DNA of 64,000 nt, from NCBI GenBank assembly GCA_052390255.1, contig JBQTHC010000039.1, forward strand, positions 16,084-80,083, in the 5' to 3' direction. The notes under the pieces are model-generated. The model made no database searches. It was not told the origin of the DNA and saw only the letters and a program-made list of their open reading frames with translations. The position numbers were made by a program, and so were the translations under genes. Of the stretch, positions 39,292 through 41,246 are shown piece after piece; position 1 is the first letter of the stretch; each line of letters starts with the position of its first letter. The stretch is from Microthrixaceae bacterium. GTDB taxonomy: Bacteria; Actinomycetota; Acidimicrobiia; Acidimicrobiales; VFJN01.

Positions 39292-40047
39292 TCAGGACAG
39301 CGGGGTCACGCAGGCGGACGCGGCCACCGCGTCGTCGGCGAGGACCCACACGGAGAGCGCGCCGTCGGCGTCGGTCGCGATCATCTCGACGTGCGCGCCG
39401 CGCTCGATCGCGACACGGTGCTCCACCTCGGCGCGGAGCGGCGCGCGCAGCTCGCGTCGGGTCGACAGCGCCTCCTCCACGAGCTCCCAGTAGGCCGCGT
39501 TGTTGACGTGGGACAGCACGTCGAAGTCACTGAACCGCAGCGCCCACGTCGTGCGGGTCGCACCGGCAGACGGGTCGGGGTGCTCGAGACGTGCCTTCAC
39601 CCGCCGGCCACCCGCCGCCTCGCCATAGAGGCCGTGGAAGCTGGGCGGCACGCGCTTGGGGCGGCCGCTCGCCTGATCGACGTGAACCCACGTCGTCGCC
39701 GCCTCGATCGCGCCGCCCGAGCCGCCGGCGATGCTGATGCGCCGCTCCGCCCAGTGGCTCCCCGTGCCCGAGCACCAGGTGGTCAGCTCGAGCGGTTCCA
39801 GGTAGCGAGGGAAGGCGTGCACCTCCATGACCGTCTTGCGCACGACCCACGACTCCGCGTCGGGGAGCGCGGCGTCGGCGGTGTCGTCGGCGGACAGGTC
39901 CTGGAGGAATCGAGTGGCTGCGTCCAGCCGCAGCCGTCCGCCTGGACTGACGTCCCCCAGCCGCACTCGGCGCGCCTCTTGGAAGATCCGGCCGCGGTCA
40001 GGCCGAGGCACCAGCGCATCGCTCGATTCGGGCAGGGCAGGTGCCAT
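39292..40047 (-). CDS. Acyl-ACP thioesterase-like (double hot-dog) protein
   Basis: ATG at 40047. 'RVRLGDVSPGGRLRLDAATRFLQD' and 'LRFSDFDVLSHVNNAAYWELVEE' are typical of the acyl-ACP thioesterase family. Confidence 0.7.
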   Translation of the reverse strand: MAPALPESSDALVPRPDRGRIFQEARRVRLGDVSPGGRLRLDAATRFLQDLSADDTADAALPDAESWVVRKTVMEVHAFPRYLEPLELTTWCSGTGSHWAERRISIAGGSGGAIEAATTWVHVDQASGRPKRVPPSFHGLYGEAAGGRRVKARLEHPDPSAGATRTTWALRFSDFDVLSHVNNAAYWELVEEALSTRRELRAPLRAEVEHRVAIERGAHVEMIATDADGALSVWVLADDAVAASACVTPLS

Positions 40048-40202
40048 GGGCCCGCAAGGTACCCGTCGGCGGTCGACCGACTGGGTGAAGTCGGTCGTTT
40101 GGAGAAATCGTGCAAATGCGGTTGACGCCAGCGCCGCAAGCGTGGTCCGATGCCTGCACTCGAGTCGCTGGACAGAGCGCGACCACACCGAGGAGCCACG
40201 TG

Positions 40203-40460
40203 ATGACCGAGACGACGCACACCATGGCAGGCCTGCTGGCCGACGCCGGTGCGACGCGTCTCCGCGCGGCCGCCCCGCTCGCCTCGTGCCTCACCGCTGC
40301 TGCGCCCCTCGCCACCTATGGCGTCACGGCCCAGCACCCGGTGTCCGGCAACCACCCGTCCACCTCCTGGACCAAGGGCGCCATTGCCAAGCCGGCCACC
40401 TTCATGGTGTTCGACCGCAAGAACCGCCCGACCCGGCCCCTCTTGGAGCGCTCGCCCTAG
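40203..40460 (+). CDS. 85-codon Ala-rich leader ORF upstream of the WhiB7-like gene
   Basis: ATG at 40203 is preceded by GAGGAG. G/C content at third codon positions is very high. The product is MTETTHTMAGLLADAGATRLRAAAPLASCLTAAAPLATYGV.... The stop lies 31 nt before an intrinsic terminator. I recognise no family. Confidence 0.5.
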   Translation: MTETTHTMAGLLADAGATRLRAAAPLASCLTAAAPLATYGVTAQHPVSGNHPSTSWTKGAIAKPATFMVFDRKNRPTRPLLERSP

Positions 40461-40491
40461 GCACACGCCAGCGAGACGCAGAACCTCCGAG

Positions 40492-40527
40492 AGGCCGCCG
40501 GGATCACCCGGCGGCCTTTCTCGTTCT
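40492..40527 (+). terminator. Rho-independent terminator between the leader ORF and whiB
   Basis: AGGCCGCCGGG-ATCA-CCCGGCGGCCT (11-bp perfect stem) followed by TTCTCGTTCT. Confidence 0.7.
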
Positions 40528-40542
40528 CCGGCCCCGGCCCAC

Positions 40543-40588
40543 CCGACCACACCGACAAGCGACCACCGACCACACCGACAAGCGATCA
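40543..40588 (+). repeat. 2 x 23-bp tandem direct repeat CCGACCACACCGACAAGCGA(C/T)CA
   Basis: 22 of 23 positions are identical. It lies between the terminator and the whiB RBS (AAGGGGGAAGGG). Confidence 0.9.
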
Positions 40589-40611
40589 CCCACGACCAAG
40601 GGGGAAGGGCG

Positions 40612-40998
40612 ATGTTGCCCGAGCGATACGAGTACGACTTCGACCAACCCGGCGGGCTGGAGCCCACCGAACCCAACCGGGACTGGTGGGCCCAAGCCCG
40701 CTGCAACGACATGGCCGGCACGATGAGCGGGCTGTTCTTCTCCGAGGAGCTCCAGGACATCGCGAAGGCCAAGCGCGTCTGCGCGATGTGCCCCGTGATG
40801 GCCGAGTGCCTCGAGGGCGCGCTCGAGCGGCGCGAGCCGTGGGGCGTGTGGGGCGGGCAGCTGCTCCTGAACGGGCGCGTGCTCCAGAGCAAGCGTCGCC
40901 GCGGCCGCCCGCCCAAGGTGGCACGAGCCGAGGACCAGCTCCCGGACATCCCCGTTCCGGTGCACCTGCAGTCACGCGTCGTCTACAAGAGCGCGTAG
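40612..40998 (+). CDS. WhiB-family Fe-S transcription factor, WhiB7-like (C-terminal AT-hook)
   Basis: Four Cys in 'ARCND...VCAMCPVMAEC', the turn 'EPWGVWGG' and the AT-hook 'KRRRGRPPK'. Confidence 0.85.
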   Translation: MLPERYEYDFDQPGGLEPTEPNRDWWAQARCNDMAGTMSGLFFSEELQDIAKAKRVCAMCPVMAECLEGALERREPWGVWGGQLLLNGRVLQSKRRRGRPPKVARAEDQLPDIPVPVHLQSRVVYKSA

Positions 40999-41018
40999 AC
41001 CGCTGCACCGAGGATCAT

Positions 41019-41048
41019 GCCCAGGGCTGCGATGCGGCAGCCCTGGGC
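41019..41048 (+). terminator. Strong hairpin 20 nt after the whiB stop (U-tract-less terminator candidate)
   Basis: GCCCAGGGCTGC-GATGCG-GCAGCCCTGGGC, a 12-bp perfect stem. No T-run follows. Confidence 0.45.
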
Positions 41049-41246
41049 GGAGGTCACCGTCCCGGGCGGGCCGGGGCAACGGTCCGGCCGGTTCGTACGA
41101 GATCCCCCCGTCGTGCGAACCGGCCCCACCGACCCCCGGCCTGCCCCACGGTCCACGCCCCGCCAACCGACCCGGCCCCGCGGCCGGGTCGGTGCGCGCC
41201 CGGCCTGACGTGTGGCAGCCACAGGCCCGGCGATACCGTCGTCGCC

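Follow-up and report, generated by a model that had tools for sequence, protein, structure and literature searches.

Within a 64-kb window, by which we mean the whole stretch of high-G+C DNA analysed here, from an uncultured Microthrixaceae bacterium of the class Acidimicrobiia, a putative whiB7/wblC-type regulator gene lies behind a leader with a predicted length of about 454 nt. The leader has an open reading frame upstream of the gene (uORF) and, between this frame and the whiB gene, a hairpin with a T-rich tail. An earlier annotation (hereafter the sequence-only reading) had proposed that the gene is controlled by attenuation, and we followed it up by computation. A scan of one genome per species yielded 80 related loci with protein identities from 91% to 43%, nearly all from metagenome-assembled genomes labelled as Acidimicrobiia, Acidimicrobiales, Microthrixaceae, Ilumatobacteraceae or Iamia. 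Six more loci from the window's own clade (L084-L089) were retrieved by exact protein look-up; L084 was left out of folding. At its positions 580-900, L084 has a long poly-C run and a second terminator copy between uORF and whiB, probably an assembly artefact. Three mycobacterial whiB7 loci were compared, namely those of a Mycobacterium tuberculosis-like contig, Mycolicibacterium mengxianglii and Mycobacterium sp. MS1601. The elements on which the interpretation is built are the following.

40114..40117, forward strand: AT-rich upstream element AAAT, the presumed target of an AT-hook (W-A-A-A-T in the family, AAAAT in mycobacteria)
40122..40127, forward strand: -35 hexamer TTGACG (TTGAC lies similarly far 5' of the uORF in 66 of 73 loci)
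40143..40151, forward strand: extended -10-like element TGgTCCGAT with hexamer TCCGAT, after an 18-nt spacer (TG and T conserved)
40191..40196, forward strand: Shine-Dalgarno sequence GAGGAG of the uORF, 6 nt before the ATG at 40203; (G/A/C)AGGAG is conserved in the close clade
40203..40460, forward strand: leader uORF of 85 codons plus TAG, marked by its Shine-Dalgarno sequence, G+C content at third codon positions (GC3), stop-to-terminator distance in 73 loci and synonymous constraint
40430..40505, forward strand: antiterminator, in which the uORF 3' strand 40430-40455 pairs with 40471-40505, including the terminator 5' arm, and the stop codon 40458-40460 is apical
40489..40527, forward strand: predicted intrinsic terminator with a 14-bp stem (10 G-C core), loop ATCA and T-rich TTTCTCGTTCT, called from fold energy and conservation
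40612..40998, forward strand: whiB7/wblC-type gene, with a Pfam Whib match, WhiB7 as nearest relative in the PDB and residues common with mycobacterial WhiB7

The whiB frame, read directly from the window, starts at the ATG 40612 and encodes 128 residues. The sequence-only reading had found this gene and implied a start at 40613, one nucleotide too far. Its naming of a WhiB7/WblC-like regulator from four cysteines, an EPWGVWGG turn and an AT-hook agrees with Pfam, the PDB search and our alignment. The product matches the Pfam family Whib (PF02467) with E = 1.3e-16, at 61 bits against a cut-off of 23.6. Its cysteines Cys31, Cys57, Cys60 and Cys66 follow the C-Xn-C-X2-C-X5-C pattern of the Wbl fold, the EPWGVWGG turn occupies residues 75-82 (E75-P76-W77-G78-V79-W80-G81-G82) and the AT-hook KRRRGRPPK residues 94-102. 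An alignment of the window protein to seven relatives from Acidimicrobiia and to four WhiB7 sequences of mycobacteria shows that the four cysteines, E75-P76-W77-G-V-W-G-G and K94-R95-x-R97-G98-R99-P100 are invariant. A search of all PDB sequences places M. tuberculosis WhiB7 first (7kif chain Z, E = 8.7e-16), with an alignment that extends through the AT-hook; other Wbl classes follow at 1.8e-8 (Streptomyces WhiB), 9.7e-8 (WhiB1), 1.3e-7 (WhiB3) and 1.1e-5 (WhiB4). Judged by these scores, the window protein is closer to WhiB7 than to other Wbl classes. The four cysteines of the Wbl fold bind a [4Fe-4S] cluster, and the EPW in the G[V/I]WGG turn is the WhiB7 contact to sigma-A region 4. To our knowledge, a C-terminal AT-hook with an RGRP core is unique to WhiB7 among the Wbl classes. 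The product is most likely a WhiB7/WblC-type orthologue, predicted to bind sigma-A region 4, to activate AT-rich promoters and to act in intrinsic drug resistance. The Acidimicrobiia proteins differ from mycobacterial WhiB7 by a 3-residue insertion after the first cysteine. They also continue for about 25 residues beyond the AT-hook with the motif RPEDQLPD-[IV]P[VI]P-x-HL (40913-40995 in the window, residues 101-128), an extension that mycobacterial WhiB7 lacks. NCBIfam gave no match for the WhiB protein, the uORF peptide or the neighbouring thioesterase. A published phylogeny includes WhiB7-clade sequences from marine Acidimicrobiales (PMC10205998), and WblC has been described as widespread among actinobacteria (PMC4255298); a WhiB7 protein in Acidimicrobiia is therefore not new.

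Downstream of the uORF, a perfect 11-bp stem (40492-40502 / 40507-40517) with the loop ATCA lies 31 nt 3' of the stop codon. Its coordinates and fold agree with the GC stem and T-rich tract described by the sequence-only reading. With A-U and G·U pairs included, the stem grows to 14 bp (40489-40502 / 40507-40520), which begins 28 nt after the stop and is followed by TCGTTCT. For the hairpin region the fold energy is -41.4 kcal/mol (z = -4.3), a value that not one of 200 shuffled sequences attained. In 73 of the 80 loci the WhiB match is preceded at 44-374 nt by a near-constant hairpin, GGCCG(C/T)CGGG-loop-CCCGGCGGCC, which is followed by a T-rich tail; in the same 73 a plus-strand open reading frame ends 17-35 nt before this hairpin. 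Four of the seven exceptions are truncated contigs, and the others have a different hairpin, CCACGGC/GCCGTGG. In L051, L070, L076 and L078, at about positions 2670-2710 and 1329-1346 of these loci, CCACGG(C/G)-loop-(G/C)CCGTGG stands in place of GGCCGYCGGG and resembles the mycobacterial CCACGGA/TCCGTGG helix. The sequence-only reading had tied its case to conservation of the leader upstream of orthologous whiB genes, and the 73 Acidimicrobiia loci provide just that. In a covariation alignment of 69 sequences, 87.7% of terminator cells are paired, against 26-57% when the partner strand is slid. Nine pairs show changes on both sides; 37 cells are changed on both sides, against 10.6 in shuffles, and the observed value was not attained in any of 500 shuffles.

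The 5' arm of this terminator has a second partner. When the 3' arm is withheld, 40400-40506 folds at -49.9 kcal/mol into a structure in which 40430-40437 and 40439-40448 pair with 40485-40505, and 40449-40455 with 40471-40478; once the 3' arm is included, the terminator state is the minimum free energy (MFE) fold. The last ten or so uORF codons, CCCG(G/A)CG(G/C)CC..GGAG, are the complement of the terminator 5' arm and of the CUCCGA just 5' of it. Since this strand is read in frame, it explains the only widely conserved peptide motif of the uORF, T-R-R-P/L...E. Across the same 69 sequences, 72.6% of antiterminator cells are paired, against 32-55% with a slid partner. The most telling position is a C/U column in the shared arm (pair 24-97). 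With the uORF strand it forms G-C in 34 and A-U in 21 sequences, and with the terminator 3' arm C-G in 42, U-G in 23 and U-A in 4. The C/U change is thus compensated in the uORF strand and tolerated as a wobble in the terminator, direct evidence for a helix between arm and uORF strand. The antiterminator and terminator helices are mutually exclusive. The alignment of relatives for alternative antiterminator pairings, suggested by the sequence-only reading as a check, has returned a covarying antiterminator.

The uORF itself has the properties of a translated frame. GAGGAG stands before it, and its G+C contents at the three codon positions are 0.62/0.64/0.92, against 0.72/0.50/0.91 in the window genes; both points bear out the ribosome-binding site and coding-like codon bias read earlier from the letters, and such a gene-like GC3 is expected of any translated frame in this genome. 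Measured from the aligned Met, family uORFs have 45-86 codons (median 61). A length of 85 codons, which the sequence-only reading took for unusual, is typical of whiB7 leaders: the uORF of M. smegmatis whiB7 has 83 residues, and the mycobacterial range is 40-83. Nor is the frame markedly Ala-rich, as had been claimed. Its 16 Ala among 85 codons amount to 18.8%, where window genes have 13.7% (p = 0.12), and over 58 loci the mean is 15.6% against 12.0% (1.3-fold, Wilcoxon p = 4e-7), with a median of 15.7% and no uORF at 25% or above. Thr is more enriched, at 14.1% against 5.8% in the window (p = 0.004) and 11.1% against 5.8% over the 58 loci (1.9-fold). In Mycobacterium, Streptomyces and Rhodococcus, whiB7 uORFs are reported to contain 25-40% Ala (PMC10274678), and the mycobacterial uORFs compared here (40, 74 and 75 codons) contain 23-26%. 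The strong mycobacterial "Ala leader" is not a property of Acidimicrobiia. Selection was estimated from the window against L001 and L002. The ratio of non-synonymous to synonymous change (dN/dS) is 0.39-0.93 for the uORF and 0.10-0.27 for whiB (synonymous difference, pS, 0.39). The middle of the uORF is about neutral (pS 0.65, non-synonymous pN 0.53 against L002), and synonymous change is low at its ends (pS 0.13-0.21 in the first 22 codons, 0.04-0.08 in the last 32). The frozen synonymous ends together with the near-neutral middle argue for nucleotide-level constraint on a frame that is kept open, rather than for a folded protein. Searches of Pfam and NCBIfam returned no family for the peptide, and only 27 representatives, of the same length class, match it among 1.84 billion proteins; tblastn with it found L001 and L002 only (83% and 55% identical). 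Wider conservation of the uORF is positional and at the RNA level. Homology of the Acidimicrobiia and mycobacterial peptides was considered and rejected, as a profile hidden Markov model scores the mycobacterial uORFs at noise level. We regard the uORF as a translated sensor and not as a protein family; the suggestion of the sequence-only reading that it could also be a real small protein fits poorly with the missing family match, the dN/dS values and the synonymous constraint at the ends.

Upstream of the leader, the AT-rich tract next to TTGACG proposed earlier is present, and the layout is family-wide. The tract itself, placed at 40096..40117 by the sequence-only reading, lies one nucleotide further on, at 40097..40118 (13 of 22 positions A or T), and contains a second AAAT copy at 40105-40108. 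Aligned on TTGAC, 66 of 73 loci yield the consensus WAAAT-N3-TTGAC. W-A-A-A-T occupies positions -8 to -4 from the first T of TTGAC, with A at -6 in 65 of 66 loci, A at -7 in 53 and T at -4 in 53. The window reads AAAT-GCGG-TTGACG, with AAAT shifted by 1 nt relative to the family spacing. AAATNNNNTTGAC is found a single time in the 64 kb, where 0.01 occurrences would be expected, and AAATN4TTGAC is likewise unique; across the window no other WhiB7-type promoter motif, indicative of a possible regulon member, was found. Downstream of the -35 hexamer, TG at +21/+22 and T at +24 are conserved in 37-53 of 66 loci, and position 2 of the -10 hexamer is A in only 3 of 66. The sequence-only reading had seen no convincing -10 hexamer. 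The canonical TANNNT is indeed absent, yet the conserved TGgTCCGAT sits at the mycobacterial spacing. We assign it tentatively as the -10 element; its non-canonical form would fit a weak, activator-dependent promoter, with transcription predicted to start at about 40157-40159. Within a few nucleotides of this start, a small hairpin shows compensatory changes in the close clade (alignment columns 8-26), and the window copy has two mismatches. In L011, L012, L016, L017, L019, L061, L062, L065, L073 and L079, the uORF ATG, near positions 2600-2700 of each locus, lies 36-41 nt after TTGAC, at the predicted start; in those ten-odd loci the uORF is probably translated from a leaderless mRNA.

Comparison with known whiB7 loci revealed a close correspondence. 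The mycobacterial locus (M. tuberculosis Rv3197A, M. smegmatis) has a long leader, a uORF and a G+C-rich terminator before the gene, as in the window. In all three mycobacterial leaders, folding without the 3' arm joins the uORF 3' end (GUCCGUGG) to the terminator 5' arm (CCACGGAC), an inner apical antiterminator hairpin holds the stop codon in its loop, and the terminator becomes the MFE fold with the 3' arm. The topology in the window is the same, whereas the helix sequences differ (GGCCGCCGGG in the window, GGCCACGGA in mycobacteria). The promoters of the three loci read AAAAT-N3-TTGTGG/TTGTGC, 18 nt, TAACCT/TAGCCT. The window shares this spacing and an A-tract that ends 3-4 nt before the -35 hexamer, but lacks the A of the mycobacterial TANNNT and has the upstream TG instead. 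In mycobacteria, control of whiB7 combines uORF-mediated attenuation with WhiB7 autoactivation (PMC10274678; PMC11550727; see also bioRxiv 10.1101/2025.10.10.681568), and many different amino-acid limitations and drugs induce the gene (PMC10274678).

Taken together, 40097..41048 very probably represents one transcription unit, in which a whiB7/wblC orthologue is predicted to be controlled by a ribosome-dependent attenuator and an autoregulated promoter. The conservation in 73 of 80 loci, the covariation and the mycobacterial leaders support this proposal, which the sequence-only reading had made in outline. The features, their conservation, the exclusive folds with their covariation and the match to mycobacterial loci are established; dependence on the ribosome, the inducers and autoactivation are presumed by analogy in the following putative model. 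Initially, a weak promoter (TTGACG, 18 nt, TGgTCCGAT) would give rise to a transcript that begins near 40158. A ribosome would load at GAGGAG and the ATG 40203 and translate the 85-codon uORF behind RNA polymerase. If translation keeps pace, the ribosome would arrive at the TAG 40458 and cover about 40440-40472, having unwound the uORF strand 40430-40455. The freed 40485-40502 would then pair with 40507-40520, and the hairpin with its U-rich tract would end transcription before whiB. If instead the ribosome is slowed further upstream, by translation inhibitors or a shortage of charged tRNA, the uORF 3' strand may pair first with 40471-40505; candidate stall sites are the single Trp codon and the Thr and Ala codons. 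The antiterminator would thereby sequester the terminator 5' arm and allow read-through of the C-rich spacer into whiB. Finally, WhiB7 would bind region 4 of the primary sigma factor while its AT-hook contacts AAAT upstream of the -35 hexamer, resulting in self-amplified transcription.

Beyond these elements, the locus carries further features, some of them within the uORF.

40209..40262, forward strand: tentative 5' hairpin predicted over uORF codons 3-20 in the window MFE fold, with GGCC-TGCT-GGCC and CGCGT, the 'CGCGC box', at 40255-40259
40368..40370, forward strand: single Trp codon of the uORF (one Trp in most uORFs)
40376..40429, forward strand: near-invariant block with hairpin 'P3', directly 5' of the antiterminator strand, an RNAalifold helix with invariant pairs only
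40528..40597, forward strand: C/A-rich, G-poor spacer between terminator and whiB, with a 23-nt tandem duplication; its sequence is not conserved
40598..40609, forward strand: Shine-Dalgarno region AAGGGGGAAGGG of whiB; AAGGGGG(A/C)AGGGC-ATG is kept in the close clade
41019..41048, forward strand: perfect 12-bp hairpin 3' of the whiB stop, stem GCCCAGGGCTGC / GCAGCCCTGGGC, with a 6-nt loop and no U tract

The CGCGC box, xCG-CGC at uORF codons 17-19, is found in 54-58 of 72 uORFs and keeps a constant spacing to the start codon. Its CGC codon is kept in 54 of 72 and is never AGR, and the preceding codon keeps CG even when it specifies Ser, Thr or Pro; the box is conserved as nucleotides rather than as amino acids. 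The 5' hairpin that includes it may be a pause or synchronisation hairpin. A family-wide 5' hairpin was not predicted by RNAalifold on 47 sequences; a hand-drawn version reaches 51.5% pairing against 36-41% when slid, a weak support. In the close clade no pair of the window hairpin varies. The Trp codon occurs exactly once in 56 of 69 uORFs and is missing from 3, where a Poisson distribution of the same mean would leave about 23 without one. It mostly lies 20-35 codons before the stop, with a full range of 11 to 58, and the Mycobacteriaceae uORFs L082 and L083 (74-75 residues) also have one each. In M. smegmatis the single uORF Trp codon confers sensing of Trp starvation (PMC10274678), and the codon in the window is a candidate for a dedicated stall site. 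MFE folds around it revealed no common structure. From the Trp codon to the stop, about 90 nt (40362-40457) are nearly invariant in the window clade (L001, L002, L085-L088), beyond what the 28-nt antiterminator strand needs. Two further pairings were tried and rejected, namely a duplex between the Trp region and the conserved Arg/CGCGC region (mean z = -0.35 on 59 loci) and a trp-like 1:2 anti-antiterminator formed by the Trp region and the antiterminator strand (mean z = +0.16 on 62 loci). It is possible, if unlikely, that promoter, uORF, antiterminator and terminator already formed one module before Acidimicrobiia and Actinomycetes split and that the additional Acidimicrobiia elements (the CGCGC box, the single Trp and, in the window's clade, the 90-nt block) add a regulatory layer. 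Candidates for that layer would be a hairpin for pausing or synchronising ribosome and polymerase, a Trp-tRNA checkpoint or an arrest peptide, and the mycobacterial Ala bias would then be a later, lineage-specific tuning.

Several observations weigh against attenuation with autoregulation as we propose it. A scan for the sigma-70 consensus called no promoter in the leader, because the -10 element is non-canonical, and the window hexamer itself lacks the canonical A. A simple terminator scan did not call the hairpin either: the U tract is interrupted (TTTCTCGTTCT), and the extended stem absorbs TTTC, so that the T-count fails. The outer antiterminator varies in register, with several pairs less than 50% paired, and the strongly conserved additional elements of the leader fall outside the attenuator model. 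The hallmark of 25-40% Ala in whiB7 uORFs is absent from the window and the family, although this enrichment is a compositional correlate reported for one class and not part of the mechanism. Lastly, the case is built on sequence and the organism is uncultured. The U tract and the spacer might point elsewhere, to a leader in which termination is mainly Rho-dependent or control is translational, by occlusion of the whiB ribosome-binding site, with the hairpin serving only RNA stability or processing. The imperfect U tract and a C-rich, G-poor spacer that resembles a Rho-utilisation (rut) site speak for it. Yet a T-rich tail is conserved after the hairpin in nearly all of the 73 loci, and it is exactly the hairpin 5' arm for which the antiterminator competes, an arrangement sensible only if formation of the hairpin decides the outcome. 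Moreover, the whiB Shine-Dalgarno sequence is not predicted to be sequestered in either fold, and a rut-like spacer could act on top of the attenuator rather than in its stead. We consider this explanation very unlikely.

The uORF invites two other interpretations. Its gene-like GC3 of 0.92, the hypothetical protein of 68-85 residues that gene callers annotate in relatives, and the 83% and 55% identity of the peptide in L001 and L002 could indicate an independent small-protein gene with its own terminator, whiB being transcribed from a separate promoter in 40528-40611 and the synteny having no bearing on regulation. For such a gene, however, the lack of a Pfam or NCBIfam family, the mere 27 same-length representatives among 1.84 billion and the dN/dS of 0.39-0.93, with a near-neutral middle between frozen synonymous ends, would be odd. 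The conserved 'T-R-R-P/L..E' is the in-frame reading of the antiterminator strand, the spacer 40528-40597 is neither conserved nor matched by a promoter, and the uORF accompanies whiB7 both in the 73 loci and in mycobacteria, for which a regulatory function of the frame has been put to the test (PMC10274678). An independent gene is thus extremely improbable. Closer to our proposal is the same architecture with a specific trigger, such as programmed stalling on Trp-tRNA, on Thr or Ala supply, or on one drug through a nascent-peptide arrest motif in the last 30 codons. The one Trp codon of 56 of 69 uORFs, 20-35 codons before the stop, is far enough away to free the antiterminator strand, and its counterpart in M. 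smegmatis senses Trp starvation (PMC10274678). The 1.9-fold, family-wide Thr enrichment and the last 32 codons, which barely vary in the close clade at either synonymous or non-synonymous sites, point the same way. Such a trigger nevertheless appears rather doubtful, given that the Trp-to-stop distance of 11 to 58 codons is at odds with the fixed geometry of exit-tunnel arrest, that the peptide is not conserved between Acidimicrobiia and mycobacteria, and that mycobacterial whiB7 responds to many amino-acid limitations and drugs (PMC10274678).

For attenuation, PMC11550727 cites a 2022 study of the Streptomyces wblC leader by Lee, Lee and Roe. By literature description, the Streptomyces wblC leader has a uORF, a conserved antiterminator, a Rho-independent terminator and induction by translation inhibitors, the same logic as in the window (PMC7157823, Lee et al. 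2020). The putative switch is also reminiscent of amino-acid operon attenuators (enterobacterial trp, his, leu and ilv, and the Corynebacterium ilvB uORF; PMC10272879), in which the position of the ribosome selects between an antiterminator and a terminator that share a strand. Those classical leaders are 14-30 codons long, carry their regulatory codons in tandem and form a 1:2 anti-antiterminator. The window uORF, in contrast, has 85 codons and no conserved run of a single codon (its two Ala triplets fall in the fast-evolving middle and are not shared even by L001 or L002), a search of its leader for an upstream partner of the antiterminator strand gave none, and the regulated gene encodes a transcription factor. 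Antibiotic-sensing leader frames such as those of ermC/ermB, vmlR, lmo0919/rli53 and the topAI uORF resemble the window in that translation stress relieves premature termination or ribosome-binding-site occlusion (PMC9226507, PMC12121999). They are short and often drug-specific through nascent-peptide arrest, whereas the window uORF is long, mostly free to vary and predicted to control a regulator with positive feedback.

Mycobacteria and streptomycetes have in whiB7 the master switch for their intrinsic resistance to drugs that target the ribosome, and the whiB7 leader has been studied experimentally. A whiB7 gene with the known switch is ordinary in kind, and what is new is the bacterial class, Acidimicrobiia, within the range of the system. 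The same promoter geometry and fold topology in a deep-branching, mostly uncultured class suggest that the device is ancient rather than an invention of Actinomycetes. Furthermore, some 70 diverged leaders provide natural covariation evidence for the antiterminator, and the finding that strong Ala enrichment of the uORF is not universal bears on why mycobacterial leaders are "Ala leaders". The accepted mechanism is unchanged, and for the window the result is a confident annotation, not a discovery.

The spacer between terminator and whiB consists of 50% C and 19% G in the window, and 71 loci average 39% C, 22% G, 30% A and 10% T. Its duplication is CCGACCACACCGACAAGCGA(C/T)CA, present twice at 40543-40588. 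No promoter match was obtained in a scan of 40528-40597. Such a composition might be rut-like or merely unstructured, and might add a Rho-dependent layer. Rfam 15 covariance models run over 39900-41200 at E ≤ 1 gave only two unrelated matches (E = 0.27 and 0.45), far under the gathering score and both outside the leader. Three long frames of 249-388 codons that cross the leader, at 39783-40949 (reverse strand), 40249-40998 and 39827-40726 (both forward), are high-G+C artefacts with no support as genes.

On the other side of the promoter, an acyl-ACP thioesterase gene (Pfam PF01643, PF20791) diverges at 39292..40047 on the reverse strand. Between 37588 and 42655 the window has, in order, an oligoribonuclease-like gene and an MBL-fold hydrolase-like gene (both recognised by eye from the translations), the reverse-strand thioesterase, the uORF, whiB7, a redoxin-like gene and a DsbD/CcdA-like gene. 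The core of this order, from the thioesterase to the DsbD/CcdA-like gene, is kept in the close clade (L084-L089). In mycobacteria the order is uvrD2, uORF, whiB7 and a reverse-strand ABC1 kinase, unlike the thioesterase and redoxin surroundings found here. The perfect 12-bp hairpin beyond whiB begins 20 nt after its stop codon and probably marks the end of the whiB transcript.

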